Part shown: positions 9,975-30,094 of the stretch, in pieces
How positions within the stretch are numbered: position 1 is the first letter of the stretch
How the letters are laid out: every line of letters starts with the position of its first letter
DNA from: Candidatus Nealsonbacteria bacterium
GTDB lineage: Bacteria > Patescibacteriota > Minisyncoccia > Minisyncoccales > MHMH01
NCBI GenBank assembly: GCA_016181965.1
Contig: JACOYH010000004.1
Location: 11,761 to 75,760 of the forward strand
DNA length: 64,000 nt
Direction: 5' to 3'
The notes under the pieces: model-generated
The model's database searches: none
Told to the model about the DNA's origin: nothing
The model's input: only the letters and a program-made list of their open reading frames with translations
Made by a program: the position numbers and the translations under genes

Positions 9975-10211
9975 TCAGTACGTCGTATCGCTTCTCCTCT
10001 CGAGTGATAGAATAAAGATATTGTTTTTTATATCCGTTCGATAAATAATCCTTATTTTGCCCTTGCGGATTCTAAAGACATCGTCCCGGCCTTTTAATTT
10101 TTTAATGTTAAGATTCTCTATCCGCCGATTTTTTAATTTAGTTAGAATTTCTTTAATCTTTTTTCGTTCTTTTCCGGTCAGTTTTCCCAAAGCTTTTTGA
10201 ACTTTATCCAT
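9975..10211 (-). CDS. RelE/ParE-family toxin
   Basis: C-terminal FRIRKGKIRIIYRTD...IFILSLERRSD pattern typical of RelE/ParE; downstream of an antitoxin gene. Confidence 0.65.
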   Translation of the reverse strand: MDKVQKALGKLTGKERKKIKEILTKLKNRRIENLNIKKLKGRDDVFRIRKGKIRIIYRTDIKNNIFILSLERRSDTTY

Positions 10212-10215
10212 ATCC

Positions 10216-10446
10216 CTAAAGACGGGCGAGGAGTTGATCTATATTAATTCCACCCTTCTTTATTTTGGTAAAATCAATGACCTGCTCCCATAGTTCGTCT
10301 GCTTCCGCCGGAGAAGATATTTTAAATACCGGTCTCGACTTCCTAACCACCACAAAAGATTTCCCCCTTTCTACGGCTTTAATGTAAGTATCCGTATTCT
10401 CTCTTAATTCTTTAAGGCCAACGATGGTTTGGTTATAGTTTTTCAT
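10216..10446 (-). CDS. Phd/YefM-family antitoxin
   Basis: Small acidic protein; N-terminal IVGLKELRENTDTYIKAVERGKSFVV pattern; 4-nt gap to the toxin gene; TTGACA-N17-TAAAAT promoter upstream. Confidence 0.65.
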   Translation of the reverse strand: MKNYNQTIVGLKELRENTDTYIKAVERGKSFVVVRKSRPVFKISSPAEADELWEQVIDFTKIKKGGINIDQLLARL

Positions 10447-10600: not shown

Positions 10601-10852
10601 TTAATTTAGATAATTTTTTAAAAGCTTTTTGATGCTTCTGAAGCCCCAGCCGGACTTCAAGTATAATTCTCTGTTTTTTGCGTCTCTTTGATTAAGAAAA
10701 GATTCATAAAATATAAGTTTATACGGACGGAATGGTTTTGTCGCAAGACTTCTGCCGTCGTTGTGCTCTTTAAATCTCTTCTTTAGATCGTTTGTATAAC
10801 CGATATACAGCGATCTGTTTTTCAAGCTTTGAAGAATATAAACGTAAAACAT
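10601..10852 (-). CDS. GIY-YIG nuclease-family protein (UPF0213-like)
   Basis: YVYILQS...LYIGYTNDLKKRFKEHN motif. Confidence 0.8.
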   Translation of the reverse strand: MFYVYILQSLKNRSLYIGYTNDLKKRFKEHNDGRSLATKPFRPYKLIFYESFLNQRDAKNRELYLKSGWGFRSIKKLLKNYLN

Positions 10853-10935
10853 ATTGAAGGCGAAACGTACAAATTTCTACTGAAATTTTACGTTTCAGCA
10901 GCGTTTAAATTTTTCTTAAAAAATTTATTACGCTG

Positions 10936-11022
10936 CGGTGGGGGTGGGATTCGAACCCACGATACCCTTGCGGGTATAGCAGTTTTCGAAACTGCCCGAT
11001 TCAACCACTCTCGCACCCCACC
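10936..11022 (-). tRNA. tRNA-Ser (CGA), type II, G73 discriminator
   Basis: Acceptor ggtgggg/ccccacc, 3-bp D-stem, anticodon loop ttcgaaa, long variable hairpin. Confidence 0.75.
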
Positions 11023-11144: not shown

Positions 11145-11618
11145 ATGCAGACATGGTTTTACTTGGCAGCCGCTGGCGCTGTTTCTGCCGTATTCTTTAT
11201 ATTCCTTTCTGGTATGTCTCAAAAAAGAAGTTTAGGCGTTATTGCGATGTTTATCTTTACTTTGCTGGCTTCAGCCGCCGTGGGTTATGGGCTCTACGGC
11301 GCCCATCTCGAAGCAAAGGAAAACTTAGGCAAACCTATTATAGAATTTCAAGAAGGCGAGTATGAGATATTTTGGATAGCTGAAAATACCCAAGATAATA
11401 AAGTTTATTTGATTGCTGAAAAAATAGAAAATCCGCCAAAACAAGGCATTCGCTTCTACCGCATAGATCCCTCCGATCCTTTTCTAAAAAAAATGAGGGA
11501 GGCCTTGGGGGGTGGTCAAGGGATGCGCCTCAAAATGGAAAAAAATGAAGAGGGCGAACTTGAGCCATCTATCCATCCCCAACCGCCGGAGCCCCTCCCG
11601 CCCAAATCAGAACAATAA
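11145..11618 (+). CDS. Hypothetical membrane protein with Pro-rich C-terminus
   Basis: Two N-terminal TM segments; ORF followed by a strong terminator. Confidence 0.45.
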   Translation: MQTWFYLAAAGAVSAVFFIFLSGMSQKRSLGVIAMFIFTLLASAAVGYGLYGAHLEAKENLGKPIIEFQEGEYEIFWIAENTQDNKVYLIAEKIENPPKQGIRFYRIDPSDPFLKKMREALGGGQGMRLKMEKNEEGELEPSIHPQPPEPLPPKSEQ

Positions 11619-11621
11619 TCA

Positions 11622-11655
11622 AAAACCCCTGTTAATAACTATTACAGGGGTTTTA
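11622..11655. terminator. Rho-independent terminator (bidirectional)
   Basis: aaaacccctgt...acaggggtttt hairpin flanked by A/T runs, between convergent genes. Confidence 0.7.
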
Positions 11656-12249
11656 TCTGAACTTTTTTTTGTTACGAACTGCAATAAAACTATTATTAGC
11701 GCTGCCGGGAACCAAGTTATGGGCATCATCTAGCCGGAAGTGCACCGCAGTCAATTCTTGGCCAACTGCATTCATGGCAATGGTTCCCTTAAAAACCATG
11801 GAAACGCCCGTTGGGGAATATAAGATTACGGTTACTCCTACGGGCACATCTCCTGTGCCGCTGTGGTAGGCGTAGAAATGAAGATTAATAATATACTCTC
11901 CTTCTGTTAAATCGCGGCCCAATGCGAATTCATAATTAAAGTTCTCGTAAGTACCGGCGCCAAGATCGTCGCGCAGATAGGAAAAAATTGAGCTCCCTTT
12001 GTGCGAATACCCTACCGGCTGGCCATCGGGCCCTTCAACCCAAAGGTCAATATCCTGAGAATAATCCGGTGGCCATTCAATCGTGACCATTAAGCCGCCT
12101 GGAACCGGGAGATCGGGCTTTGCGGGTTTTTCTTTTGATACGGGCAATAATGAAAGCAGTAAGACAAGCATGATAAAGAAAAAAGCGATGGAAAGCGGCG
12201 GATCAACAAAGCGAAAAGGAGAATCTTGGTTATTGCCCGCTATCTTCAT
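11653..12249 (-). CDS. Single-pass membrane protein coupled to the MotA/ExbB-like gene (possible divergent ExbD/TolR/MotB-like partner)
   Basis: N-terminal ...FVDPPLSIAFFFIMLVLLLSLL TM with an Asp at the TM boundary; beta-rich exo-domain without an OmpA-like motif; 20-nt overlap with the upstream gene. Confidence 0.4.
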   Translation of the reverse strand: MKIAGNNQDSPFRFVDPPLSIAFFFIMLVLLLSLLPVSKEKPAKPDLPVPGGLMVTIEWPPDYSQDIDLWVEGPDGQPVGYSHKGSSIFSYLRDDLGAGTYENFNYEFALGRDLTEGEYIINLHFYAYHSGTGDVPVGVTVILYSPTGVSMVFKGTIAMNAVGQELTAVHFRLDDAHNLVPGSANNSFIAVRNKKKFR

Positions 12250-12778
12250 TGTGCCGCTCCCATTTAGATAATAGATTCAAACAGGTGCTCTTGAATATCA
12301 AGTGCAAAAGTTCCAAAAAAACCGAGCCGACCAAGCCAATTATGGTGGTGAGAAAAGCAGTGCTCATGCCGCCGAGGGCTCCCTGAATATAGACCCTTAT
12401 AACCGCTATTTCTTCCTCTGACGAAAGCAGGGTGCCGAGAGAAATGGTGACCATCAAAATGCCCACTAATGTGCCCATGAAGCCCAGAGCAACAAGCGTC
12501 CGACTAAAAAAATAAGATCTTTCTTCTTTTCTTGCAACAATCATCTCGAAGTCAGCTGAGCGGTAACTGGAAATAAGTTTCGTGATCCAGATTATGTCGA
12601 TTAGGGAAAACGCCCAGCCAATCATGAATACCAAAATAATCAGGAAACTGATGTAAGTTTTATCAAGCTCTGGTATCTTTTGCCAGTAACCAGAAACTAA
12701 AGCGCCGGCCATTCCCACCAAGAAAAGGCCGGAGAAAAAAAGCCACAGAAAAAGATGGGAAAACTTACCGAGTCTCAT
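12230..12778 (-). CDS. MotA/TolQ/ExbB-family proton channel (minimal, 4 TM)
   Basis: ALGFMGTLVGI and ALGGMSTAFLTTIIGL motifs in TM3/TM4, matching the family pattern. Confidence 0.65.
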   Translation of the reverse strand: MRLGKFSHLFLWLFFSGLFLVGMAGALVSGYWQKIPELDKTYISFLIILVFMIGWAFSLIDIIWITKLISSYRSADFEMIVARKEERSYFFSRTLVALGFMGTLVGILMVTISLGTLLSSEEEIAVIRVYIQGALGGMSTAFLTTIIGLVGSVFLELLHLIFKSTCLNLLSKWERHNEDSGQ

Positions 12779-12807: not shown

Positions 12808-13257
12808 CTATCCCTTCCCTATGGCCTCACAGCGATCTGCCATGGCGGCCAATTCTTCTTCCGACAGAACCTGCTGGGCCAACGGATACAGAATGTCGTT
12901 CTCTTTGGCGATATGCTCTCTAAGAAGAGAAATAATATTAGCGGCCGCTTCTATTTTGCCGGCGGCTAACTCCTTCACATATCCCCTCTTTGTCTCGTGC
13001 TCCATCAACATAACGCCGATAGGACCGCCTTGGTTGGGAATACCCTTTCTCTCCAAAGCAGGAAACAGCACTTCTTCCTCTTTGTGGTGATGCGGCTCGG
13101 CAAAGTTTGCGGTAAACTTCAAAAACTCCTTGGCGTAGCCAGCCGGGTCTGCTTCCAATTTGACCAATTCGGCCAGAATGATTTCGTGGTCAGCTTTTAA
13201 CTCCTCTATGCAATTATGATGGCGGCAACAATGCGACATATGAGAATATGTTACCAA
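12808..13257 (-). CDS. Hemerythrin HHE cation-binding domain protein
   Basis: H..E...HHHKEEEVLFP and MEHE...H motifs. Confidence 0.65.
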   Translation of the reverse strand: MVTYSHMSHCCRHHNCIEELKADHEIILAELVKLEADPAGYAKEFLKFTANFAEPHHHKEEEVLFPALERKGIPNQGGPIGVMLMEHETKRGYVKELAAGKIEAAANIISLLREHIAKENDILYPLAQQVLSEEELAAMADRCEAIGKG

Positions 13258-13302: not shown

Positions 13303-13689
13303 TTAAAACTGTTTCTCTCCTTCTATGAGAATACACCGATTATTACTGCATTTCGGTTCCGAGTTTATGCAAGTCCAATCCATTGATATTACAGCAGGAC
13401 AAAATGTTTTAGGAAACCGAAGATTCCACTCATTGATATATTTTCCGTTAATTGCCGTGGCTGTGCCCCCAGCGCTACACCCGCAACCGTCGGCATTAAC
13501 CCAAACACAATCAGCGTCTGTGCCGCATGAATAGAAATCCGGAAGTTTTGGCTCTGGTTTTAGAGGATCGATAATCTGAATATCGCTTAAAGAACCATTT
13601 TTGAACAAAGAATATAAAAGCGCAACGGCAAGCGCGAGAAAAACCAGTCCGATTAACTTGATACGTTTAGATAAAAATATTTTCTTCAT
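13303..13689 (-). CDS. Small secreted Cys-rich protein
   Basis: Signal peptide/TM, more than 10 Cys in 128 aa. Confidence 0.45.
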   Translation of the reverse strand: MKKIFLSKRIKLIGLVFLALAVALLYSLFKNGSLSDIQIIDPLKPEPKLPDFYSCGTDADCVWVNADGCGCSAGGTATAINGKYINEWNLRFPKTFCPAVISMDWTCINSEPKCSNNRCILIEGEKQF

Positions 13690-13707: not shown

Positions 13708-16446
13708 TTATTTTACGCAATCTTTTACGCAGATGCCAATATCTGTTCTCCTGCCGCCACGAAGAGCAGTATCAGAGATGGGAAGGACTTCGCATCTTAA
13801 CCCGGGTTGGCATGAATCATTCTGGCAAAAGTCATTGATGCCTCCTTTGCTGCATACTCCAAAGATTCTATTTTGATATGTAACCTTTGGATTGCCAATA
13901 CATTTCAGGTCCTGTTGGCAATCACCATCTTCAGCGCACCAATATCCCTGCTTGCCTTCGCTACAAGAACCTTTTGTTTTTAACAAAGGGTCGGTTACTT
14001 TTAGCGCGCAAACAGTGCCCTCTCTGCAAGGGCCAAATTCGTCGTCGAGGCCGCAATAATTATCCTCTTGGTTCTTTATGTCAGCAGATCCCTTATACCC
14101 ACAAACGCCGTTTACTGAACAAAATAAACCAGGGTCACAGGTGTCTAGAGGTTTCCCTTGAAGTATACTTACAATATCACATTGCGCTCCAACTCCCCCA
14201 TCATTGCAAAGATAATTGACGCATTCCAAATCATTTTGACATCCTGAATCGGTCAGACAAAAATTACCCGATAAGCCCTCACCGCATCTTTTTGTTACAG
14301 AATTGCATATCAAACCGGACTGGCAATCGCTGTCAGAAGAACATTCATTGCCTGCTTCGCCGCAAGTGATTTTTTGGGCTTCGTCTTGAGTCTCTTTTTG
14401 AGGTTTATAAAGATAAACCGAAATCTCGCGGACGGCTTTATCCCCCGTTTTGGAAAAATTTGGCGTCAAACCAAAGGCATTAAAAATCGGTAAACTAATT
14501 TTAGCAAAAACCGTTAAGCGAATTTGATAATTTCCTTCCTTGAGATTGCTTGCGTTCCACATACCCAAATCCCCTTTGATCACTCTTTGTGAACTTTGGG
14601 CAATTGTTTGCCAGCCATTTTGTGGATCAGCGCCTTCGGCAAGGTATTCTACTTTATAATTTTCAAGTTCGGATGCGCTGGCAGTGCCTTTAATGGCAAT
14701 AGGGTCGGCAAGATCAACTCCTGCATTTATAACAGGATCTGAAATTTCAGCGATTGGCAGACAATCTTCACTAACATCTTCCAACAGCAGTGTTTTGTAA
14801 GCATTGATTCTGCCAAAACCGTATTTTTCGTCCCATCCCGGATCTCCTTTGTCATCGGCTCCTTGAATTATGGCGCAGCGGATTTTTTTATTATTCCAGG
14901 CAGGATGTAATGATTTAACCAACGCAGCCAGTCCGGCCACATGAGGAGCAGCCATAGATGTGCCAGCCATAAGAATATGATTATCGTCAACTTTATAGCT
15001 GACACCTAAAAAAACAAGAGTATTAAGATCCATTTGAGTTGAGCCTGTAGAAAGAAGGTTCATTGATATGGGGCCTCCTCCGGGCGCAGCTACTGTTATA
15101 GCGGAACCAAAGTTAGAATAACCAGTAAAATTATCATCGTTACCAACCGCGGAAACCACAATTGCATCAGAATTATTTGCGGGAGCTTGGTCAGTAATGC
15201 GGGCACCGCTATTTCCCGCTGCAGCGACGAAAACTACATTATCAGAGCTAACCAATTTACTTACTGTTGCGTTCATTACATGAGAACCAAAAGATATTTC
15301 CTGACTAAAGTTGATAATTTTTGCATTGTCACCTAATGCATGAAAAGCCAAATTTGCAACATCGAGCGCGGTAAATTCACTCCAAACACGTGATAAAAGA
15401 TCTAACACGAAGATCAGTGCGGGGTTGGGGCTTTCTCCAGATTCTGTGGGGATTTTAAATGGGTAAAGTTTGTCCGGCGGTATTTTGGGACAAGGATGTA
15501 AGGTAAGCGGCATAATTTTTACTTTTGGAGCAACTCCGATTATGCCAAAATCGTCATCGCGTGCTGCAATGATACCAGCTACATGAGTTCCGTGCGCATC
15601 ACAATCGCCCGTAAAACCGTGTTTTAGAGGACCTAGAGGGCCGCTCCATCCTTCTATTACATTTCCTTCCAAGTCCGGGCTTAAGTGATCAACGCCAGTA
15701 TCTATCACAGCAACCGTCACGCTTGGATCGCCTTTTGTAATTTCCCATGCTTTGGGCATACCAATTTGCTTTAAATTCCACAAATCATCATAATCCTGTC
15801 CCCAAGAACCTTTTGAAGAAAAGTAAGGATCGTTGGGGGTATAATCAGTGGCTTGCGCGTAATAGTTAGGTTCGGCAAATTGGATATTTGGGTCTTTTTG
15901 CAAGTCGGTCATTAATGCCAAAATATCGGTGTTTTCCGACATTTTGAGAAGATAGACATTTCCCAATACTTCGTTGTCGGCAAAGGGCCTCATCAAGCTG
16001 GTTGCCTGATAATTTGTGAAAATATCAAGCAAAGAAGAAGGATTTGTTTTATCTAAAATTTTAATCTCCGCTTCCGTCTGAACTGGCTTTCCATCTGCCG
16101 TTAACTTCCCTGTTTTTAATCCGAAGATTATTGTTCCTTTTTCAAAGTCCTCGCCGGCAACAGGTTTTTGACCGTAAGCATTCACTGTCTCTCTTGTTAT
16201 GGGAATATTAACAACATGAGGCTGAAATTTTTCTTTGTTTTTAATAAAAAAAATCGTTGTTAGAAACAACAAAGCGATTGTTATCGTAGCAAGTATTATC
16301 TTTTTCTTTCTGCCTATTCCGGAAATCTGCTGTTGACTTAGTGTTTTCGGCGCTTCAGGCGTTGATACATTAAAAATCTCACCGCACTTAATGCAGAACC
16401 TGGAGTGATCAGAATTCTGAGATTGGCATTTGGGGCAAAGCAACAT
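13708..16446 (-). CDS. Subtilisin-like serine protease (S8) with N-terminal zinc ribbon, TM anchor and C-terminal Cys-rich repeats
   Basis: CPKC...CIKCG ribbon; VAVIDTGVDH (Asp), HGTHVAGII (His), GTSMAAPHVAGLAAL (Ser); repeated DCQ.GL.C modules. Confidence 0.85.
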   Translation of the reverse strand: MLLCPKCQSQNSDHSRFCIKCGEIFNVSTPEAPKTLSQQQISGIGRKKKIILATITIALLFLTTIFFIKNKEKFQPHVVNIPITRETVNAYGQKPVAGEDFEKGTIIFGLKTGKLTADGKPVQTEAEIKILDKTNPSSLLDIFTNYQATSLMRPFADNEVLGNVYLLKMSENTDILALMTDLQKDPNIQFAEPNYYAQATDYTPNDPYFSSKGSWGQDYDDLWNLKQIGMPKAWEITKGDPSVTVAVIDTGVDHLSPDLEGNVIEGWSGPLGPLKHGFTGDCDAHGTHVAGIIAARDDDFGIIGVAPKVKIMPLTLHPCPKIPPDKLYPFKIPTESGESPNPALIFVLDLLSRVWSEFTALDVANLAFHALGDNAKIINFSQEISFGSHVMNATVSKLVSSDNVVFVAAAGNSGARITDQAPANNSDAIVVSAVGNDDNFTGYSNFGSAITVAAPGGGPISMNLLSTGSTQMDLNTLVFLGVSYKVDDNHILMAGTSMAAPHVAGLAALVKSLHPAWNNKKIRCAIIQGADDKGDPGWDEKYGFGRINAYKTLLLEDVSEDCLPIAEISDPVINAGVDLADPIAIKGTASASELENYKVEYLAEGADPQNGWQTIAQSSQRVIKGDLGMWNASNLKEGNYQIRLTVFAKISLPIFNAFGLTPNFSKTGDKAVREISVYLYKPQKETQDEAQKITCGEAGNECSSDSDCQSGLICNSVTKRCGEGLSGNFCLTDSGCQNDLECVNYLCNDGGVGAQCDIVSILQGKPLDTCDPGLFCSVNGVCGYKGSADIKNQEDNYCGLDDEFGPCREGTVCALKVTDPLLKTKGSCSEGKQGYWCAEDGDCQQDLKCIGNPKVTYQNRIFGVCSKGGINDFCQNDSCQPGLRCEVLPISDTALRGGRRTDIGICVKDCVK

Positions 16447-20101: not shown

Positions 20102-21190
20102 ATGTTAAAATATAACTATAATATAATTCCTATGGAAAAATATATGAAAAATTCACCAATCCCGGGCGTGGTCAAAAAGGTTTTGCCCAGCGTTGTCAGC
20201 GTAATTGTTTCAAAGCTTCTGCCTGTTTTTGAAACGCCTTACGGCCTGATGCCACAACAAGAAGAAAACCCTTTCGGCGCCCCCCTGCCCTTTCCTTTCA
20301 TGGTGCCCAAGGGGAAGAAAAAGATTCAGATCGGCGGCGGTTCTGGGTTCATCGTGGAATCTTCGGGGATTATCATCACCAATCGCCATGTCGTGGCTGA
20401 TTCTCTGGCGGAATATACGGTAGTGCTCAATGAAGAAAAAAAATATTCCGCAGAGGTAGTAGCTCGCGACCCGATCAATGATGTGGCCATATTGAAAATA
20501 AAAGAAAAAAATCTGCCTGCGCTCGCGCTCGGCGATTCTTCCAAGTTGGAGTTGGGGCAAACAGCCATTGCTATAGGCAACGCTCTGGGAAACTTTTTGA
20601 ACACTGTTTCGGTGGGAGTCGTATCGGGACTTTCCCGAGAAATCAGCGCCGGCGATGTCATCACGAAAAGAATGACGAAACTGCGGGGACTGATTCAAAC
20701 CGATGCCGCCATAAATCCGGGAAATTCCGGAGGCCCTTTAATTGATATTGAGGGAAGAGTTATCGGCATCAACACGGCCATGGTTTTTATGGCTGAAAAT
20801 ATCGGCTTTGCTCTGCCCATCAACAATGCAAAAAAGGACCTGCAAGATCTAAAAAAATTCGGCAGAATCAGGCACCCATTCCTGGGCTTGAGATATGTTA
20901 TATTAGACAAGGAACTTCAAGAAAAATTCAAGCTGTCGGTTGATCGAGGAGCGTTGGTGATTTCCGAACCGGCGCCGGGCGGCCAAGCCGTAGTGCCCGG
21001 CGGCGCTGCCGATAGGGCGGGCATTAAAGAAGGCGACGTAATACTAGAAATAGCAAATCAGCAAATTTCCACAAAAAATCCTTTAGAAGAAATTCTGCAA
21101 AAACAAAAAATCGGCGACTCGGTGAGCTGTAAAGTAATAAGAAAAGGCCAAGAACTAACGCTCAAAGCAATCCTTACCGAAAGAAAATAA
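20102..21190 (+). CDS. htrA: HtrA/DegP-family serine protease with PDZ domain
   Basis: GSGFIV...ITNRHVV, TDAAINPGNSGGPL, C-terminal PDZ. Confidence 0.9.
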   Translation: MLKYNYNIIPMEKYMKNSPIPGVVKKVLPSVVSVIVSKLLPVFETPYGLMPQQEENPFGAPLPFPFMVPKGKKKIQIGGGSGFIVESSGIIITNRHVVADSLAEYTVVLNEEKKYSAEVVARDPINDVAILKIKEKNLPALALGDSSKLELGQTAIAIGNALGNFLNTVSVGVVSGLSREISAGDVITKRMTKLRGLIQTDAAINPGNSGGPLIDIEGRVIGINTAMVFMAENIGFALPINNAKKDLQDLKKFGRIRHPFLGLRYVILDKELQEKFKLSVDRGALVISEPAPGGQAVVPGGAADRAGIKEGDVILEIANQQISTKNPLEEILQKQKIGDSVSCKVIRKGQELTLKAILTERK

Positions 21191-21396: not shown

Positions 21397-21693
21397 TTAA
21401 AAAGGATCGGGGTATTCACTTTCTAAGGCCGCATTGAATTGGGATTGTCTTTGTTCCCACCTCGCCATCAAGTCGGAGAAACGGCCCCCTTGAAACCTAA
21501 TAACCTCCTTCTTTATTTGTGGCTCGGCTTTTGGCGCCTGCACAGCGTACTGATAAAAAATTATAATTCCAACAATCGCCATCGCTAAGGTAGAAACAAG
21601 CATCGATAGAAACAACCGCTCCCCCGCCAACCATGGCAGTTTCTGAAAAAAGGCGCCGTATCTTTTAATTTGTTCGCTTTTGATTGGCGTCAT
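21397..21693 (-). CDS. Small membrane protein at the distal end of the pilMNO operon
   Basis: Single TM; position in operon. Confidence 0.35.
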   Translation of the reverse strand: MTPIKSEQIKRYGAFFQKLPWLAGERLFLSMLVSTLAMAIVGIIIFYQYAVQAPKAEPQIKKEVIRFQGGRFSDLMARWEQRQSQFNAALESEYPDPF

Positions 21694-22217
21694 TTTGAAT
21701 AAACTTTTATGTTTAGGGTTGCACTAACTTTATCTTCGTTTTTTTCCATTCTACTGATGCTCAAATTCAAGGGCTGCAACAGGTAATCGCCGTATTCGAG
21801 CGCCTCTAAAAATCGCGCAACATCTGAAAAATCACCCTCCAGCAGCAGCCGAAAGTTCATTGACTCCCAGGGATCTCCTTCTATTTTCTGCGGGGAGACC
21901 GGAGTGATTTCGATGGAGATGCCCGCTAAACCAGCTTCTTTCTCAAGGAATTCTATAAAGCCGATGGGTTCCCTCGAATTAACAAAAAGATTATCTATGC
22001 GCTCCAAGCTGTCCCGATACGTTTCCCTATTGGCTGCAAATACCTCGAGATTCTCCTTCTTGGCTTCCAGTTCAGCCAGCCGATTCTTTTGCGAAATAAA
22101 ACTATCTGCTGTTTCTCTGATTTGAGAGAACAACGGCCACAGCCAAAATACAACTACAATTACAAGCACTAACGCCAACAGCCCCGCGGCTATTTTGGTT
22201 TTATTCTCAATGCTCAT
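21690..22217 (-). CDS. pilO: Type IV pilus assembly protein PilO-like
   Basis: Single N-terminal TM plus coiled coil; follows pilN. Confidence 0.55.
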   Translation of the reverse strand: MSIENKTKIAAGLLALVLVIVVVFWLWPLFSQIRETADSFISQKNRLAELEAKKENLEVFAANRETYRDSLERIDNLFVNSREPIGFIEFLEKEAGLAGISIEITPVSPQKIEGDPWESMNFRLLLEGDFSDVARFLEALEYGDYLLQPLNLSISRMEKNEDKVSATLNIKVYSK

Positions 22218-22761
22218 TGATATTAAAGGTTACCGAAAAATTGATATCTGCCGGCTTCACCCAGTTCGACGGAGGAAAATCAATATCTCTGAAACCGGAC
22301 TCGTCTCCCAAATTTTTTTTCAGAACAAAAAGCGCTTCTCGGACGGGCGCATAGCCGGTTAAAGAACTTTTTAGCGTCTGCTCTCCATCCTCGTTTTGGA
22401 TGTTAAAATAAAGAGTATTTAACCGCGCTTGATTAGGCATGGCGGCAGCCACGAGCGACAGGGCGCCGCTAAAACTTATTTGGTTTTGATAAAAAAATTC
22501 AAGGCGGTTAATTTCTGCATTAATAGCCCCTATCTCATCTGTTAAATCCTGCGCTTGCGAACCCGCGAACCTTTCTTCCTCCAGTCGTACCAAAATTTCC
22601 CGGGCATCAACCATGCCCGAAACATAAAACTTTATTGAAAGCAAAATTAAGAAAAGGGCAACGAAAGCAAACAACGCTATAACTCCCCAAATAACAACCA
22701 ATCGCAACCCATTCTCTGCTTCCAATATTCTTTTTTCTGCGGGTGGCAGCAGATTAATCAT
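22207..22761 (-). CDS. pilN: Type IV pilus assembly protein PilN-like
   Basis: MINLLPP N-terminus, single TM, position after pilM. Confidence 0.65.
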   Translation of the reverse strand: MINLLPPAEKRILEAENGLRLVVIWGVIALFAFVALFLILLSIKFYVSGMVDAREILVRLEEERFAGSQAQDLTDEIGAINAEINRLEFFYQNQISFSGALSLVAAAMPNQARLNTLYFNIQNEDGEQTLKSSLTGYAPVREALFVLKKNLGDESGFRDIDFPPSNWVKPADINFSVTFNINEH

Positions 22762-23824
22762 ATTTTAAGCCCTGCAGGGCAAGCCCCAGGGCGGTAGTGT
22801 ACCGTAATGATTCGCTATATGGCAGTTCAGGCACTTCTTTAATTGGACTAGGCATGATATTGATCCATGGATTGCCGAGTTCCACGGGCAGTTTTAATCT
22901 CGCTGATAAAAATTCGCTTAGGCCCTTTAAGTTGGCGCCTCCGCCAGAGAGAATTATTTTTTCTATTTCTTTGCCCGTAGACGGAAGATGCTCATGGGCG
23001 GCATAACCCTGATAATACTCTAAATGCTTTTCGATTGTCGCGGCTAATTCAGTCAAAATCGGTTTTAAGATTTCTTGGCCATCAAGCCCTTCTTGAATTT
23101 TTAGTTTTTCGGCCTGTTGAAAGCTAATTTTCAATGCTTCGGCGATGGTCTCGGTGAGCTTGCGACAGGCAAAAGCAATGGACGAAGTGAATCTTAACGA
23201 ATGTCCGGCGAAAATGCTTAGTCGCGTATTGCTCGCCCCCATATCAATTAATAGAACGGACTTCGTAGTCGCGCCTCCCGCAATCAGCGCCCGTGATATA
23301 GCTTGCGACTCCATTTCCAAAACCAACGGTTTCAGCCCCGAGCGCTTCAGGACTGTCACGTAAGGGTCAACGGTTTTTTGAGGCAAAGCGGTGATTAAAG
23401 CATCGAGATGGTCCAAATGGTTTACAATTGGAGTTACAATCTGGGAATCGAGATAGACATTATCAATGGGCAGGGGTACATAATTTTCGGCTTCGAAGCG
23501 GATGGCCTTTTTAAGTTCGTCTTCTTTCATCTTGGGCATTTGAATGACCTGTAAAAAGGCCCGTTCCTCCGGCAAAGAAGCGACCACATATTTTGTGTTT
23601 AATCTTTTCCCTTGAACCTCTTTGCAGGCCTCTCTCAAAATTTCTGTCAGCGCCTCGCCGTCTTTAATTTCTCCCTCCTCTATTATTCCGGGTTTTATTG
23701 TTTTTTCGCCAAAAGAAGCAAGGGCCATAAGACCGCCCCTCTTTTCGAGCTTAATAATTTTCAAAGAAAAATCAGAGATGTCCAATCCAAAGGCCTGCGG
23801 TTTTAGATTTAAGTAGTCCAGCAT
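22754..23824 (-). CDS. pilM: Type IV pilus assembly protein PilM (actin-like ATPase fold)
   Basis: GLDISDFSLKII and LLIDMGASNTRLSIF phosphate-binding motifs; internal Met start chosen to avoid overlap. Confidence 0.8.
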   Translation of the reverse strand: MLDYLNLKPQAFGLDISDFSLKIIKLEKRGGLMALASFGEKTIKPGIIEEGEIKDGEALTEILREACKEVQGKRLNTKYVVASLPEERAFLQVIQMPKMKEDELKKAIRFEAENYVPLPIDNVYLDSQIVTPIVNHLDHLDALITALPQKTVDPYVTVLKRSGLKPLVLEMESQAISRALIAGGATTKSVLLIDMGASNTRLSIFAGHSLRFTSSIAFACRKLTETIAEALKISFQQAEKLKIQEGLDGQEILKPILTELAATIEKHLEYYQGYAAHEHLPSTGKEIEKIILSGGGANLKGLSEFLSARLKLPVELGNPWINIMPSPIKEVPELPYSESLRYTTALGLALQGLKYD

Positions 23825-23825
23825 T

Positions 23826-25268
23826 TTAATAACTTTCTTCCCAATGCTCAATGGTAACAATCTGAGAGTAGGGCAAGCCCTCGCCGCCCGGCGGCTGACT
23901 GCCTCCCCATACCCCTTCTCGAATTATATCATTATCTAGATAAAGATTCAGGGGGGCCCAGGCGCTAGTAAGAGAAAACTTTCTAGCAATAATACCCCCC
24001 GTAATGTTGAAAGCGAGGGGCAAGCTATTCATTCTGATTTCGTCTTCGGCATAAATCAGCCCCGTGATATTTGTTTCCTGAAATGAAGAATAGGGACCGA
24101 AATTTATCTTGCCCTGGCTGATCAAGCCCGAGGGAAAACCGACCCCGGGATCATTAATAGTAATATGATTGAATCCGAAATCGTCGCCCCACTTTGATTT
24201 CTCGCCAATATTAACCGTTCTTTCAGCGATTAGCGCCCCGTTAATTTCAAGCGCCCTGCCGCCCGCCAGGTCAATTTTACCCTCAACGTAATAGGTTGAG
24301 ACAACGCTTCCGTTCGTCATATGCTCGAGGATTAGCTTCCCGTTCTGGCCCACTTGCCAGAGAAGGTCCTCAAATTCGTTTTCTGAAAAAATGCACTGAT
24401 TGCTCGTCAATACCGGATTATCCAAAAAATCCTTGCCTAAGATACTGCACTGGCCTTGATCTTGGGCGGCCTGCGCCTTGTTTTTATAAGAAGCAGGGTC
24501 ATTGGAATTAAAATCAATGGCTGTTATTTCAACTGGAACATGGGCGCAACCGTTATTGGTGCACTCGCTAAATTCCTGGGAATCAAGACAGCCGCACGTG
24601 GAAGTGGTATTGCAGATGTTTTGAGAGCACTCGGCCTCCGAGTCCAAACTGCTTGAATCAGAGACAAGCAAATTCCCTACGGTCAAGACCTTTCCATCCA
24701 CATTCACGTTGCTCCAAAGCTGAATTTTCAGAGCATTGTTGACAAACATGTTGCCCGAATTAACGTTCAGATTGCTGGCCTGAATTGTGCTCTCGCCGCT
24801 GGGCGCTCCGGCAAAAACAGGGCTGTCTACGGTTAAAGATCCCAGGGCCTTCAAAACGCCAACCCTGATTACCCTTTGAGCGGTTTTTCCGGGGCCAAGA
24901 GCAATCGTAGAGGTGGCAATAATTTCTCCTTCAGCGCAACGGTTATTCTGAATAGATACCTCGGTGGCAGAGTCGGCCTCGTAACTCCGGCTAAAAGAAG
25001 CGCCCCAACTATCACAACCCGGGCTTTCTTCAAAAGAATTCTTCCAGATAGGATCATTTTTAAGTTTCCAGATGGCCTCATTGATTCCCGCTTCGCTTAA
25101 ATAATAGGTTTTAGTGGCGACTTCCTGGCTTCTGGCGATTCTTGATTCGGTTAGAGTAAAAGTAAGAAAATAACTGCCGAGCAGCAAAATAACAGCCAGC
25201 GCCAAAGTCGCAATAATCACGATAACCCCTGCCTGCGCAGGCAGGCCTTTATTTTCAACAACTAACAT
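23826..25268 (-). CDS. PilX-like N-terminal domain protein (large pilus-associated / tip protein)
   Basis: N-terminal ...AQAGVIVIIATLALAVILLLGSYF hydrophobic segment typical of PilX-like proteins; large Thr/Ser/Asn-rich ectodomain. Confidence 0.45.
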   Translation of the reverse strand: MLVVENKGLPAQAGVIVIIATLALAVILLLGSYFLTFTLTESRIARSQEVATKTYYLSEAGINEAIWKLKNDPIWKNSFEESPGCDSWGASFSRSYEADSATEVSIQNNRCAEGEIIATSTIALGPGKTAQRVIRVGVLKALGSLTVDSPVFAGAPSGESTIQASNLNVNSGNMFVNNALKIQLWSNVNVDGKVLTVGNLLVSDSSSLDSEAECSQNICNTTSTCGCLDSQEFSECTNNGCAHVPVEITAIDFNSNDPASYKNKAQAAQDQGQCSILGKDFLDNPVLTSNQCIFSENEFEDLLWQVGQNGKLILEHMTNGSVVSTYYVEGKIDLAGGRALEINGALIAERTVNIGEKSKWGDDFGFNHITINDPGVGFPSGLISQGKINFGPYSSFQETNITGLIYAEDEIRMNSLPLAFNITGGIIARKFSLTSAWAPLNLYLDNDIIREGVWGGSQPPGGEGLPYSQIVTIEHWEESY

Positions 25269-25269
25269 A

Positions 25270-25848
25270 TTAAAAATTTCGGCCGAACACCGATGTTTTT
25301 AAGTGGATATTTTGTTCGCCTTTTTCGAGTAATAGTCCGAGATAAACCACGCCATTGCTCCAAAAATTCAATTGGCTGACAAATTCTCCGACCACTTGGG
25401 ATGGTTCCAGAGATTTGTTCTCTAGTATTTGGCCGGGCGGGGGCAAGGCATCATAAGAAACCAAGGTCTGTTCAGGATCGTTAGAAAAATAAAAGCCGAT
25501 GACTTCTCGTTTAATTTGGGACGCGCTCTCGTCGCGCAAGTAGCGAATATAATGATAAGGAACCGATAGGTGCCCGTCTTCAAACATCAGCGTGCTTGTG
25601 GCCTGGGACTCGGCCAAGGGAAGCTCGGTGACAATTTCCCTTGCCTGCCTTATCTCTCGCGTCAGCCGCTCCAGCAAGACCCTGCCGTTTTGGGTAATTT
25701 CAGCTCCGGCTTCCCCTCCCCTATAAACCCTTTGGCTGAAATTAAAAGCCAAAAGAATGGCGCCGAGCACCAAAAAAACCACAGATATTGCCATCAGGGT
25801 TTCGGGAAGCGTAAAAGCATTTTTGTTTTTTATAATTTGCGGCATCAT
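25270..25848 (-). CDS. Type IV minor pilin (prepilin-type N-terminus, FTLPE variant)
   Basis: KNAFTLPETLMAISVVFLVLGAIL class III signal-like N-terminus. Confidence 0.6.
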   Translation of the reverse strand: MMPQIIKNKNAFTLPETLMAISVVFLVLGAILLAFNFSQRVYRGGEAGAEITQNGRVLLERLTREIRQAREIVTELPLAESQATSTLMFEDGHLSVPYHYIRYLRDESASQIKREVIGFYFSNDPEQTLVSYDALPPPGQILENKSLEPSQVVGEFVSQLNFWSNGVVYLGLLLEKGEQNIHLKTSVFGRNF

Positions 25849-26277
25849 TTATCTTCTACTCACTATACTGCTTAAATTTATTTTCTCTTCGCCGCCGAAA
25901 GACGAACGCCAAGAGACATCAACATTAACCTTTTTCATTGGATAGGGGTCGTTGACTAAGTCGTAATCGCATGCGGCTGTCGAAAGGTCGGAGGCGTCAA
26001 GGCAAACAACGCTGGTAAGACGTTTGTAACCCTGAAACTCGGAAATTGTTCCGTAGTCCTCGGTGATTTCAGAGACCGACAAATCAGCATATGCCCGGGA
26101 AATTTGATTCTCTATTTTCTCCTGGGCAAGATAAACAGCCGCGGTCGTCTTTTGACTAAAGCCGGCTATTTGTATGCCCAGCGGAAACATATTCAAAATC
26201 GCCACAATGCCAACGGCCAAAATCGCCGTGGTAATAATAATCTCTATTAACGTGAAGCCGGCTTGCTCTTTTTTCAT
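25849..26277 (-). CDS. Type IV pilin (prepilin N-terminal cleavage/methylation motif)
   Basis: QAGFTLIEIIITTAILAVGI. Confidence 0.75.
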   Translation of the reverse strand: MKKEQAGFTLIEIIITTAILAVGIVAILNMFPLGIQIAGFSQKTTAAVYLAQEKIENQISRAYADLSVSEITEDYGTISEFQGYKRLTSVVCLDASDLSTAACDYDLVNDPYPMKKVNVDVSWRSSFGGEEKINLSSIVSRR

Positions 26278-26711
26278 TTGATGACTTTTACAAAGCCAGA
26301 AGGCCTGATATCTACGCCGCTAGTTGCGTTGCGGCTGTTAATAAAGGCAACGGTTCCCGATTCTTGGGCAGCCCCATAGGGGTTGAAAATTACCTGATTG
26401 CCGCTCAAGCCGGAAATTTGCTGAATATCAACTTCCGATGGCAGCGATTTTGTTTCTAGCACTTCTTCGCTCTCTCCGAATTTAATAATTTCGTATTTAT
26501 TGTCCGCTATGTTGAATCTGATGCCGTGATTAATCTGCTCATCAACCGACAATTGCCCGGCATAGCGCAGGTCGGTGACAAGGTCTCTCACTGTTCCCGA
26601 AAGCTGCAAAGACGGCTGATAGGCCCTGAAGGCCGGAATGCCTATTAAAAAAATGAGCGATATAATTCCTATAACAACTAATAATTCGATAAGAGTGAAA
26701 CTATTTCTCAT
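26274..26711 (-). CDS. Type IV pilin / pseudopilin
   Basis: NSFTLIELLVVIGIISLIF. Confidence 0.75.
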   Translation of the reverse strand: MRNSFTLIELLVVIGIISLIFLIGIPAFRAYQPSLQLSGTVRDLVTDLRYAGQLSVDEQINHGIRFNIADNKYEIIKFGESEEVLETKSLPSEVDIQQISGLSGNQVIFNPYGAAQESGTVAFINSRNATSGVDIRPSGFVKVIK

Positions 26712-27928
26712 TTGATGCCGCTTAGCATGCTATACATTGGTTGAATCATTGAAATGGCGAAAAAACCGACCGCTCCGCCGATAAAAAGCATTAAAATGGG
26801 TTCAATGATAGACGCCATATTCTTCGTGGCGGTCGTCACTTCTTCCTCAAAAAAGGCGCCTAATTTTTCCAAAATAGCCGATGTCTCTCCGGTTTCCTCT
26901 CCCACCTTGAGCATCTGGATAACGGTTGGCGGAAAAAGATTGCGGTGTGGAGCAAGGGACTCGGAAAGCTTGCTGCCTTTTTTCACCTCTTCTATCGCGC
27001 GCGTCAGCGCCTGCTTGTAATGAAAATTACCCACGCCTCCGGCGATAATCTCTAAAGACCTAATCAAAGAAACGCCCGCCGACAGCAAAGAGGCAAGGGT
27101 CCTGACTGTGTAAGCCGAATTGGTCTTTTTTACAATCGAGGCAACAATCGGGGTCTTGATGGCAACCTCCCCCAACGCCCTTTTGCCGGCTTTGGTCTGA
27201 AGAGCCAACCTAAACAAGAAGAAAAAAACGATTGCCAGCAGAATAGCTAAATACCATTGATTAGCAAGGAAATTTCCGGCGCCGATAACAAGCCGCGTTG
27301 TCAAGGGTAATTCTATTTCCAATTCTTCAAATGTTTCGGCTAATTTCGGAACAACGACAACCAGCATCATCACTCCAATACCCATCATTGCCAGAATAAT
27401 CACAGCGGGATACATTAAGGCGCTTTGGATTTTAGACCTTAATTCGTATTCCCTTTCCATCTGCCGGTTCAGCACGCCGAGATTTTCTTCCAAAGTGCCC
27501 GCTTCTTCCCCCACTTTCACCATACTGCGAAACAATTCTGAAAACACACCCGAATGTTTTTCCAGCGCCTCTGCAAAACTCCTGCCCTTGATTACTTCTT
27601 CGGCCACTTCCTGCAAGACCTTCTTTAATTTTTTGTTGGTGGACTGCTCGACAATGGTCTTGAGCGCCTTTGGCAGTGAAACTCCGGCGCTAATCATAAC
27701 CTGAAGATTCCTCGTCATCATCATCTTTTCTTGAAAAGAAATGCTTCCGGTGAGGGGTATACTTATCTCCAGCTTGCCTTTTGCGGGTTTTTCCCGCAGT
27801 TCGGCCGAAATCAAAACATAATCCTCTTGGCGAAGCGTTTTAGCCAGTTCGCTTTCATTTCTCGCTTCCCTATTGCCCGAATATGGTTCACCTCGTTGCG
27901 ATTTGGCAGTGAAAAAATATTTGGGCAT
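26708..27928 (-). CDS. pilC: Type IV pilus platform protein PilC/GspF
   Basis: Duplicated GspF domains, three TM segments, conserved MLKVGEETG motif. Confidence 0.9.
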   Translation of the reverse strand: MPKYFFTAKSQRGEPYSGNREARNESELAKTLRQEDYVLISAELREKPAKGKLEISIPLTGSISFQEKMMMTRNLQVMISAGVSLPKALKTIVEQSTNKKLKKVLQEVAEEVIKGRSFAEALEKHSGVFSELFRSMVKVGEEAGTLEENLGVLNRQMEREYELRSKIQSALMYPAVIILAMMGIGVMMLVVVVPKLAETFEELEIELPLTTRLVIGAGNFLANQWYLAILLAIVFFFLFRLALQTKAGKRALGEVAIKTPIVASIVKKTNSAYTVRTLASLLSAGVSLIRSLEIIAGGVGNFHYKQALTRAIEEVKKGSKLSESLAPHRNLFPPTVIQMLKVGEETGETSAILEKLGAFFEEEVTTATKNMASIIEPILMLFIGGAVGFFAISMIQPMYSMLSGIK

Positions 27929-27934
27929 ATTGTC

Positions 27935-29692
27935 CTATTCTACAATGGCGCTCAAGACCTCTTCGATTGAGGTCATGCCTTGGGCGGCCTTAATAAATCC
28001 GTCTTCCACCATAGTGACCATGCCCCCTGCCTCGGCCTGCGCTTGAATCTGACTTGAGGTAGCCCGCTTGACTATCAGTTCTTTTATTGTTTCGGTAACC
28101 GGCAAAACCTCGTATATGCCTATTCTACCCTTATAGCCCTCTAAGCATTCCTTACTGGGCTTTGGCTTGTAAAACGCAATATCTTTGAAGGTCTGTTTTG
28201 CTTTGATTATTTTTTCTTTTTTTAATATCTCTAAAATTTTCTGCAGATCGCAATATTTTGAGATATTCTTGATATCTGCTTCGCTTAAAAAATATTTTTC
28301 TTTATTATTGCAAAGCCGTCTCACGAGCCGCTGGGCTAAAATAACATTTAAAGTTGAGGATATCAGAAACGGCTCGGCCTGCATATCAATTAGCCGCGGG
28401 ATGGCGCCAGCCGCATTGGTGGTATGCAAGGTAGAAAGCACCAAATGTCCTGTTAGAGCGGCGTTAATGGCAAGCCCCGCGGTTTCGTTGTCTCTGATTT
28501 CTCCAACCATAATAATGTCGGGGTCTTGCCTGACCAGCGATCGCAGACCATTGGCAAAAGTTAGCCCTATTTTTGGCAGAACCTGCGTCTGATTAATTCT
28601 TGGCATCCTGTATTCAATTGGATCTTCGATGGTGGATATATTCACGCCGGGCTCGTTGAGAATTTCCATCATAGAATACAAAGATGTGGTCTTACCAGAA
28701 CCGGTGGGGCCGGTCACCAATACCATGCCAACCGGCTTTTTAAGATTGTCCTGAATTGCTTCCAAGGCGCTTCCCCGCAGTCCAAGCTCTTCAAGCGTAA
28801 AGGCCTTGGCTGTTTCAGACAAAAGGCGCATAACTATTTTCTCGCCGTCGAAAACAGGCAGTATAGAAACACGAGTAGAATACTTATATTCATCGGTTTC
28901 TATTTTAAACCTCCCATCCTGCGGTAGGCGATGCTCGTCGAGTTTTAAGTTCGATAGCACTTTAATTCTAGCCACTATGCCAGAGCTCACTTGCTTTGGC
29001 AAAGTCATGGCGTCGTGCAAGACACCATCAATTCTGTATCTCACTACAACCTCTCTTTCTGTGGGCTCAATATGGATATCAGAAGCGCGTCCTAAAATAG
29101 CGTGCTTTATCAGAGTATCCACGATTTTTATGACTGGCAGCTCTTGCGCCTGTTTTGCCAACTTCTCCTTCTCTTCGCCCTCTTCGGCAAACGCTTCCGC
29201 CTTAATTGATTTTATGCCTTTTGCCTCTTTCTGTATGATTTCACCAAATTCGGCTTCTAATGTTTTTTGATATTGCTTAAGGGCCTGCTTCATGCCTGCG
29301 GGAGACGTGAGTCGCGGCTGAATCTTTAAATTGGCTTTTTTTCTAATAAAATCAATGGTCCTTAAATCGTCGGGGTCAAGCATGGCCACTTGAAGATTCT
29401 CGCCTTCCTTTCTATAGGCCACTATGTTGTGGCTCTTGGCGATTGGCTCGGGAATTATTTTGAGGATATCGGGCGGGATTATTTCCTTTTCCAAATTAAC
29501 AAAGGGTATGCCTAAAATATAGGCCTCCGTTTTAATCAGGTCTTCGTGCCGGATGAAACCGTCGGCAACCAAAACATCTCCTACCCTCTGGTTGGCTTTT
29601 TGGGCTTTTTTAAGGGCTCCTTCGAATTCCTTTTCGGAAACCAATTTGGCATCCAGCAGGAAGGCCTTTAATTGTTGGGGTTCTACCCTCAT
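27935..29692 (-). CDS. pilB: Type IV pilus assembly ATPase PilB/GspE
   Basis: Walker A VLVTGPTGSGKTTSL, Asp and His boxes, N-terminal GSPII domain. Confidence 0.9.
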   Translation of the reverse strand: MRVEPQQLKAFLLDAKLVSEKEFEGALKKAQKANQRVGDVLVADGFIRHEDLIKTEAYILGIPFVNLEKEIIPPDILKIIPEPIAKSHNIVAYRKEGENLQVAMLDPDDLRTIDFIRKKANLKIQPRLTSPAGMKQALKQYQKTLEAEFGEIIQKEAKGIKSIKAEAFAEEGEEKEKLAKQAQELPVIKIVDTLIKHAILGRASDIHIEPTEREVVVRYRIDGVLHDAMTLPKQVSSGIVARIKVLSNLKLDEHRLPQDGRFKIETDEYKYSTRVSILPVFDGEKIVMRLLSETAKAFTLEELGLRGSALEAIQDNLKKPVGMVLVTGPTGSGKTTSLYSMMEILNEPGVNISTIEDPIEYRMPRINQTQVLPKIGLTFANGLRSLVRQDPDIIMVGEIRDNETAGLAINAALTGHLVLSTLHTTNAAGAIPRLIDMQAEPFLISSTLNVILAQRLVRRLCNNKEKYFLSEADIKNISKYCDLQKILEILKKEKIIKAKQTFKDIAFYKPKPSKECLEGYKGRIGIYEVLPVTETIKELIVKRATSSQIQAQAEAGGMVTMVEDGFIKAAQGMTSIEEVLSAIVE

Positions 29693-29697
29693 GTAAT

Positions 29698-30066
29698 TTA
29701 CTCGTTAAGAGCGTCTTTTACTTTTTTGACCACGTCTTCCAGGTCGTAGCTTGCTTTAACAAGATAAGTGGTGGCGCCTAATTCCAATGCCTTTTCAACG
29801 TCGCTGGTTGATTCAAGGTTAGTCAAGACAATAATAGGGATATCTTTAGTCGCCGGATCTTCTTTTAGGGCCTTCAAAACCTCAAAGCCGTGGAGCTTTG
29901 GGAGAATCAAGTCCAAAAGTATCAAGTCGGGCTTTGCGCTTTTAGCCGTCCTAAGCCCTTCTTCGCCATCAAGCGCGCTTAACATTTGGTAGCCCTCTTG
30001 GGTCAGCACTTCGGAAAAGGTCTTTTGAAGGGCCGATTCGTCTTCGATGAATAATATCTTTTTCAT
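29698..30066 (-). CDS. Single-domain response regulator (CheY-like receiver)
   Basis: MKKILFIEDE...DLILLDLILPKLHGFEVL receiver motifs; Met at 30066 chosen because the longer ORF overlaps the kinase gene. Confidence 0.8.
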   Translation of the reverse strand: MKKILFIEDESALQKTFSEVLTQEGYQMLSALDGEEGLRTAKSAKPDLILLDLILPKLHGFEVLKALKEDPATKDIPIIVLTNLESTSDVEKALELGATTYLVKASYDLEDVVKKVKDALNE

Positions 30067-30094
30067 AATCTTTATATGTTTATATGTTAGAATG

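Follow-up and report, generated by a model that had tools for sequence, protein, structure and literature searches.

We present here a conserved three-gene module, designated A-B-C, from a 64,000-nucleotide (nt) stretch of Candidatus Nealsonbacteria DNA (GenBank contig JACOYH010000004.1, positions 11,761 to 75,760, forward strand), hereafter called the window. The source organism belongs to the Patescibacteria/Parcubacteria group. Gene A (12230-12778, minus strand) encodes a MotA/TolQ/ExbB-like channel subunit of 182 amino acids (aa), gene B (11653-12249, minus strand) a single-pass partner of 198 aa, and gene C (11145-11618, plus strand) a 157-aa protein with a transmembrane (TM) hairpin and a domain predicted to lie outside, its gene being convergent with B. 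The A and B genes overlap by 20 nt (12230-12249), the start of B lying inside the end of A. The products probably make up an ion-driven membrane machine of three components, related to MotA/ExbB/TolQ motors and Ton/Tol-like in that its output would fall outside the cytoplasm. An initial annotation, made from the letters of the DNA, had reported A and B as a proton channel and its partner; an open reading frame (ORF) check reproduced both ORFs with their coordinates, the length of A, its motifs and the overlap. The unit is a trio rather than a pair, C co-occurring with A-B in essentially every relative. Patescibacteria-type cells have neither an outer membrane nor flagella, and the pair had been presented as an oddity of such a cell. 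That framing was misleading: diderm Alpha- and Gammaproteobacteria carry the module far more often, and phages have it too. The module is not peculiar to Patescibacteria and does not depend on an outer membrane.

Motors of the MotA/ExbB type are the only known bacterial route from membrane energy to mechanical work, and a field has grown from each branch known so far (flagellar stators, Ton, Tol, gliding and Zorya). If the reading given above is true, A-B-C is a further motor branch with two partner families that carry no informative name. Its scale is large, with some 2,200 B clusters (50% identity), 26 phage records and 580 species or more. A complete trio on a chromid of Azospirillum brasilense Sp7 and the module in cultured Rhizobium phages put it within experimental reach. 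The stator pair in Patescibacteria is no invention of that lineage; it is a rare and streamlined version of a module found widely. Interest rests on breadth, outer-membrane independence, phage carriage and tractable carriers; the Patescibacteria setting is the lesser point. A full-text literature search gave no description of the A-B-C trio and no mention of DUF2135, a family discussed below, and the sections consulted of one review handle non-flagellar relatives only as a heterogeneous 'GIT' class (PMC12505986).

Channel subunit A

By its sequence, A is a genuine but divergent subunit of the MotA/TolQ/ExbB superfamily. It carries the motifs LVALGFMGTLVGI and ALGGMSTAFLTTIIGL, and by itself it falls just short of the gathering score of Pfam MotA_ExbB (PF01618), with 21.3 bits against 22.9 over aa 97-174 (E = 2.3e-4). 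Two proteobacterial homologues pass the PF01618 cut-off with 33.3 and 37.0 bits, and a profile built from proteobacterial homologues only finds the window protein at E = 5.5e-14, spanning TM1-2 and TM3-4. The assignment is firm because these relatives link window A to the superfamily, and the superfamily membership proposed in the initial annotation holds in profile searches. Against solved structures, the A-family profile matches the ZorA-type PDB chain 8vvn_C (E = 6.8e-5) and reaches just E = 0.26-0.81 for ZorA 8qyh and MotA 8gqy. The ZorA models of NCBIfam and PADLOC are matched weakly by window A and over the TM core only. Scores against two ZorA cut-offs were 26.2 bits (cut-off, 700) and 24.7 bits (cut-off, 100).

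Hydropathy gives A four hydrophobic segments and a C-terminus of 27 aa. The cytoplasmic TM2-TM3 loop is basic and about 37 aa long in the window (about 9 aa in the copy of phage RHph_X2_25), so short that A has essentially no cytoplasmic domain. Conservation was read from 82 A sequences. TM3 bears L98-G99-x-x-G102-T103-x-x-G106 and TM4 bears G137-M-S-x-A141-x-x-T144-T145-x-x-G148; G99, G102, T103, G106, G137, A141, T144, T145 and G148 are each kept in 95-99% of sequences, and a D39-x-T41 motif ahead of TM2 is also conserved. The last two TM helices thus carry the conserved small/polar faces which in MotA/TolQ/ExbB proteins form the lining of the ion path. We take the conserved Thr residues of TM3 and TM4 to be equivalent to ExbB T148/T181.

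Partner protein B

B is a new kind of partner that is not ExbD/TolR-, OmpA- or TonB-like and is faintly DUF2135-like. It has a short N-terminal cytoplasmic stub, Asp16, one TM helix (19-37 by hydropathy, 17-34 in the AlphaFold2 [AF2] model), a Pro/Lys linker and a beta-sandwich. Asp16 lies at the cytoplasmic end of the helix, is kept in 93% of the 248 family members aligned, and is the sole conserved charge of the TM region. The site is the hallmark position of MotB, ExbD, TolR and ZorB. A profile of proteobacterial homologues finds window B at E = 4e-44. The initial annotation's description of B as a divergent single-pass partner with an Asp at the membrane boundary is therefore borne out.

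The exo-domain (about residues 52-173) is modelled by AF2 as a nine-strand beta-sandwich, with a predicted local distance difference test score (pLDDT) of about 90. Across the same 248 sequences, W59, D66, D68, W70, D94, G97, E107 and G117 are 100% conserved, R93, D95, N105, N122, E165 and T167 are at least 98% conserved, and H124 is 94% conserved. The resulting pattern is W59, D66xD68xW70, R93-D94-D95, N105xE107, N122xH124 and E165xT167. This acidic cluster may form a metal site, probably for Ca2+, or a ligand site.

No Pfam, NCBIfam or PADLOC model matches B at E ≤ 1. This covers ExbD/TolR (PF02472), from which the modelled fold also differs in being all-beta instead of alpha/beta, and the OmpA family in Pfam. 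As the initial annotation had it, the exo-domain carries no OmpA/peptidoglycan-binding or TonB-type signature; it has no ExbD/TolR domain either. Foldseek against PDB returned generic sandwiches, the best being DUF4425 structures (E = 5e-3), along with a calcium-bound Parabacteroides protein; neither B nor C had a match at E ≤ 1e-3. A BFVD search with B found uncharacterised phage proteins only, and sequence-profile searches of PDB with B and C gave nothing under E = 0.28. Pfam DUF2135 (PF09906) is matched weakly by 7 of 43 B-family members (best E = 1.5e-4; one relative reaches 12.8 bits where the cut-off is 22) and not by window B.

Third component C

The TM helices of window C lie at residues 5-23 and 29-47 and form a hairpin. 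The loop joining them is positively charged, so the globular part should be outside. Just past the hairpin, the outside part has a conserved 'L-G-K/R-P' motif (family form, 'L-S/G-R/K-P-K-P'); P98, R103 and Y105 are conserved as well, and the protein ends in 'HPxPPxxLPPK' (family form, 'F-Y/H-x-x-P-x-P-x-x-P-P-K'). An AF2 model of a C relative (53-sequence alignment; pLDDT, 79) consists of the TM hairpin, a short helix and a beta1-beta2-beta3-alpha-beta4-(beta5) domain. Foldseek likened the model weakly to small barrels of the oligonucleotide/oligosaccharide-binding (OB) type, such as RuvBL domain II and pertussis toxin subunits (E ≥ 0.07), and the outside domain may thus be weakly described as OB-like.

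Window C and proteobacterial C align end to end in hhalign (probability, 96.2%; E = 2e-9; 144 columns). The family has at least 474 members, all unnamed or 'hypothetical' and none with a Pfam domain. No TonB or TolA model matches C or its relatives, no PADLOC model matches B or C, and PHROGs holds no family for A, B or C.

Conservation and distribution

A-B-C is a conserved, self-contained three-gene module. A B-profile search returned 2,211 cluster representatives (50% identity) at E ≤ 1e-3 and 1,532 at E ≤ 1e-10. Nearly all of the 150 matches listed are 165-260 aa long. A scan with one genome per species placed B relatives in at least 580 species, and the 80 best-matching of these at least 580 relatives serve as the genome loci below. 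A stands directly upstream of B in 79 of the 80 loci, C directly downstream of B in 74 by profile and 78 by clustering, and the genes mostly overlap or abut. Each fetched context of B relatives has a two-TM protein of about 155-195 aa adjoining B. The next non-overlapping neighbour cluster is lineage-specific and occurs in 15 of the 80 loci at most, and the remaining frequent clusters are antisense shadow ORFs. No TonB, Zorya effector or other conserved fourth gene was found beside the trio in these loci. The initial annotation had named two findings that would overturn it, an ExbD/TolR domain in B with a tonB-like gene nearby and a failure of the A assignment in profile searches; neither was encountered. 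Its statement that the power consumer is not evident likewise stands.

The hosts of the 80 loci are chiefly Alpha- and Gammaproteobacteria, with many Granulosicoccaceae and Rhodospirillales and the cultured Meinhardsimonia xiamenensis, and include some Nitrospiraceae, Phycisphaeraceae and Flavobacteriales bins. Synteny of the module extends across about 20 Granulosicoccaceae species. By Pfam, the 116 nearest neighbours have unrelated housekeeping functions, and PADLOC models are matched by only about 3 of them, through generic cyclase, oxidoreductase and 2-oxoglutarate matches. A defence-island setting was rejected on these two scans.

Among 80 metagenome loci collected with a CPR-type (candidate phyla radiation) profile, B was identified in 76, A in 68 and C in 51; many of these contigs are too short to contain all three genes. 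C is convergent with B in CPR contexts (the window, L001/L002, L003-L006 and L096) and co-directional in L007 and L008, and A-B-C order prevails in most other lineages. Two B paralogues surround A in the order B1-A-B2-C in L125 (4932-7377), L128 and L135. These contigs are marine and of low GC content (about 30%), and the L125 copy adjoins a gene resembling pyrroloquinoline quinone-dependent dehydrogenases. B precedes A in L119, L123, L132, L133 and L140.

Seven records of Azospirillum chromids (including NZ_CP012915.1) have two B-matching places each and may carry two paralogous modules per chromid; the locus examined in A. brasilense Sp7 (L095) is a complete A-B-C. Close relatives of the window versions are scarce (10 B clusters and 3 A clusters), and for that reason we place the Patescibacteria copy away from the centre of the family, as a rare and streamlined offshoot. 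One contig labelled uncultured Candidatus Saccharibacteria (CAYWKE010000007.1; L070) has a trio whose B shares 52% identity with the alphaproteobacterial type. Because the trio is of proteobacterial type, the contig is more suggestive of mis-binning or of a recent transfer than of another Patescibacteria lineage with the module.

Phage copies and peptidase genes

B is encoded in 26 Rhizobium/Sinorhizobium phage records. All seven phage genomes examined contain A and B, and six contain C by profile; in phage P10VF, a positionally equivalent two-TM protein is the C candidate. The phage trios stand among early/replication genes. Their A proteins are 141-158 aa long; in the bacterial trios checked, A is larger, at about 250 aa.

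A secreted trypsin-like peptidase is the only recurrent genetic link of the module, and in phage-type operons it is translationally coupled to A. In phages RHph_X2_25 (L090), TM3_3_14B (L091) and NV1.1.1 (L094), the gene of a Trypsin_2 peptidase with a signal peptide shares 1-4 nt with the start of A, as it does in metagenome locus L157. Nine metagenome loci with small A (L142, L149, L150, L152, L157-L159, L162 and L167) have the order peptidase-A-B-x-C, and metagenomic phage contig L007 has A-B-C-peptidase, the peptidase directly following C. Phage N3_13 has a Trypsin_2 peptidase gene 2 kb downstream. A convergent trypsin-like gene lies within about 2.5 kb downstream of C in six Granulosicoccaceae loci, directly after C in three of them, and three further contigs have a trypsin-like gene near the trio. 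Trypsin_2 and S41 genes adjoin the trio of Patescibacteria locus L003, an S8 subtilase gene stands two genes upstream of it in the window, and L001/L002 have no serine protease; secreted serine proteases thus occur within a few genes in two of three Patescibacteria contexts. Homing endonuclease genes of the HNH and Seg/NUMOD3 types split the phage cassette in L090 (4535-5077), L091 (1725-2483) and L094 (1665-2402).

Locus in the window

The 34-nt space between the stop codons of the convergent C and B genes is occupied by a hairpin with an A-run and a U-run on its flanks (AAAAACCCCUGU...ACAGGGGUUUU; 11622-11654, no strand assigned). It has a folding energy of -16 kcal/mol (z = -4.3), and none of 200 shuffles was equally stable. 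It is plausibly a bidirectional intrinsic terminator. A consensus terminator scan did not detect it because its loop is 11 nt.

On the same strand as A and B, the window encodes a hemerythrin next to A (12808-13257, minus), a 128-aa Cys-rich secreted protein (13303-13689, minus) and an S8 subtilase of 912 aa (13708-16446, minus), which has a zinc ribbon at its N-terminus, a TM segment and a long C-terminal region rich in Cys. Given the common strand and gaps of 18-45 nt, the subtilase, Cys-rich, hemerythrin, A and B genes may form a single transcription unit. The initial annotation had described these three neighbours correctly, and as conserved partners of the module they were rejected, since neither the other CPR contexts nor any of the other loci have them.

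A tRNA-Ser(CGA) gene (10935-11022, minus) lies about 120 nt before C. Ahead of it are ORFs at 9975-10211, 10216-10446 and 10601-10852 (minus); by eye, these comprise two small back-to-back ORFs of toxin-antitoxin-like appearance and an 83-aa ORF with a GIY-YIG-like N-terminus. GC content falls to 0.40 around the tRNA and small ORFs, and this stretch may be a variable or island region. A tRNA-linked island as the setting of the module was rejected: L001/L002 have only a distant tRNA-Arg gene, and L003, L004, L096 and L008 have none.

About 10 kb from the trio lies a type IV pilus cluster (21690-31066, minus) with PilM (22754-23860, minus), PilC/T2SSF (26708-27928, minus), PilB/T2SSE (27935-29692, minus) and unannotated small ORFs. 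The pilus was rejected as the power consumer, its genes being unlinked to the trio in other genomes. An HtrA-like Trypsin_2-PDZ protease is encoded about 7 kb from the trio (20102-21190, plus). It matches the profile of the phage-cassette peptidases at E = 2e-19.

Proposed mechanism and alternatives

In the proposed machine, A would form a channel-lined ring, a pentamer by analogy, around a central dimer of B. Asp16 would act as the proton carrier and face the conserved Thr/Gly faces of A TM3 and TM4, and proton flow would turn A relative to B. A 5:2 stoichiometry and rotation are what characterised relatives would lead one to expect, and the B1-A-B2-C variant, as circumstantial evidence, fits two B positions per complex. 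Work would be delivered outside the cytoplasm or in the plane of the membrane, in Ton/Tol fashion and not in Mot/Zorya fashion, because A is nearly without a cytoplasmic domain and both B and C are predicted to have their globular parts outside. That prediction draws on hydropathy, charge distribution and the AF2 models. The B sandwich would most simply serve as a binding module, possibly stabilised by Ca2+, and anchor the axle to the wall or a ligand. Of the three proteins, C is the likeliest to act as a TonB/TolA-like transducer that would ride on the ring and engage a client. Such a client would need no outer membrane, since the module is found in Patescibacteria, diderms and phage-infected cells; its presence with or without an outer membrane points to something general in the envelope. 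One extension of this scheme, unlikely in our estimation, makes the trio a proton-powered puller that works for secreted serine proteases where ATP is absent. C, B or both would grip a protein of the envelope or wall, which the A/B motor would unfold or pull out so that it could be cleaved, as a periplasmic counterpart of AAA+ proteases. This would explain the overlapping peptidase-A-B-C operons of phages, the trypsin-like gene directly after C, the serine proteases near two of three Patescibacteria trios and the indifference to the outer membrane.

Several observations weigh against the motor as proposed. Window A by itself scores under the PF01618 gathering score. The TM segment of B has no statistically detectable similarity to ExbD, TolR or MotB, the segment being too short for such a test. 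A plain hmmsearch profile of proteobacterial C misses window C, which is connected by profile-profile comparison alone. In the CPR lineage C lies on the opposite strand, and its co-expression there is therefore not guaranteed. The outside domains have no significant match to solved structures (best E = 5e-3 for B and 7e-2 for C), so the binding roles given to B and C are guesses. Stoichiometry and rotation are argued from analogy.

Other readings must be set beside the motor. The trio could be a Zorya-like or other anti-phage, superinfection-exclusion or abortive-infection module in which A/B senses envelope perturbation and then signals or collapses the membrane potential, phages carrying it to exclude competitors. 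Its patchy distribution, its place among early/replication genes in 26 Rhizobium/Sinorhizobium phage records, the tRNA-Ser gene and toxin-antitoxin-like/GIY-YIG ORFs beside the window trio, and the ZorA models and ZorA-type PDB chain as the best curated matches of A all speak for such a role. We nevertheless hold it improbable. The ZorA scores are far under their cut-offs (about 26 bits against 100-700) and are confined to the TM core, A is without a long C-terminal tail and has hardly any cytoplasmic part, PADLOC offers no model that matches B or C, and no ZorC/D/E-like or other effector is conserved alongside. The flanks are housekeeping genes, with about 3 generic PADLOC matches among 116, and synteny over about 20 Granulosicoccaceae species looks like vertical inheritance and not like a defence island. 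The Zorya-type system that the initial annotation had offered as one possible power consumer fails accordingly on tail, score, ZorB partner and effectors. Phages also suggest another origin, a lysis or envelope-remodelling cassette of peptidase and A-B-C whose bacterial copies are domesticated or remnant prophage genes. The 1-4-nt peptidase/A overlaps in RHph_X2_25, TM3_3_14B and NV1.1.1, the nine peptidase-first operons of metagenomes, the A-B-C-peptidase order of L007 and the homing endonucleases inserted within the cassette fit this. Bacterial trios that were checked, however, sit amid housekeeping genes, with no phage genes among the nearest neighbours, and their A is larger (about 250 aa). 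Bacterial copies also greatly outnumber phage copies, so transfer from host to phage is equally possible, and we give the phage-derived reading a low probability.

A regulated ion channel or ion-homeostasis device without mechanical output, its A/B pore gated by the outside domains of B and C via Ca2+ or a wall signal, would suit the invariant acidic cluster of B, the missing client, the near-absence of a cytoplasmic domain and the Na+/H+ exchangers that are occasionally among the neighbours. Strict three-gene conservation and the translationally coupled phage peptidase are harder to explain in this way. Characterised superfamily members are all known to couple ion flow to work (PMC9389320, PMC12505986). 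We consider a mere channel an unlikely answer. Least credible, and in our judgement very improbable, is an ordinary ExbBD/TolQR pair, or a stator pair of a flagellum, pilus or gliding system, whose only peculiarity is its divergence in a reduced genome. A does belong to the same superfamily, the A and B genes do overlap, and the window has PilM, PilC and PilB about 10 kb off. Yet B has no ExbD/TolR, OmpA/MotB or other Pfam domain and is modelled as an all-beta sandwich, no TonB_C/TolA-like protein accompanies the pair (C matches none), and A has no cytoplasmic torque-generating loop. None of the conserved neighbours is a gene for pili, flagella or gliding. Proteobacterial hosts are expected to own canonical Tol/Ton too, and the trio would be an additional system in them.

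Comparison with known systems

ExbB-ExbD-TonB and TolQ-TolR-TolA resemble A-B-C most in layout. Each consists of three membrane proteins: a channel subunit of the MotA/ExbB superfamily; a single-pass partner whose gene comes next and overlaps, and whose helix has a conserved Asp at its cytoplasmic end; and a third, membrane-anchored protein that has a Pro-rich segment and a domain outside. Output is predicted to lie outside the cytoplasm. The trio differs in that A has four hydrophobic segments, like MotA, and a vestigial cytoplasmic domain, B is modelled as a nine-strand beta-sandwich with an invariant acidic cluster instead of the ExbD/TolR fold, and C combines a TM hairpin and an OB-like domain without TonB_C/TolA similarity. 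Unlike Ton and Tol, it also occurs in cells without an outer membrane and in phages.

ZorA-ZorB supplies the best curated matches of A, in the ZorA TM core, and both are non-flagellar MotAB relatives; A-B-C lacks the ZorA tail, a PADLOC ZorB match, ZorC/D/E genes and a defence-island context. As in MotA-MotB and PomAB, A has a four-TM topology, its gene adjoins that of B, and B has the conserved Asp; the trio is without their torque-generating loop, plug/linker and OmpA-like domain. Non-flagellar 'GIT' relatives are said to have condensed cytoplasmic domains and varied appendages, and the sections consulted of that source do not describe the B/C combination of the trio (PMC12505986). DUF2135 (the YfaP-type domain) has a motif pattern, D-x-D-L-W...G-Y...G-x-Y, that resembles B; window B gives no match to it, and a 48-position model has no explanatory value for the role of B. 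The AglR-AglQ-AglS gliding motor of Myxococcus has one A-type subunit and two different B-type subunits. The B1-A-B2-C variant likewise has one A and two B types, but AglQ and AglS are TolR-like, with no C-type protein and no beta-sandwich. B and C are covered by no curated family of Pfam, NCBIfam, PADLOC or PHROGs, nor is the module as a system. It does not pass as an ExbD/TolR, TonB, MotB/OmpA or Zorya system, and it belongs to the MotA/ExbB superfamily through A only.

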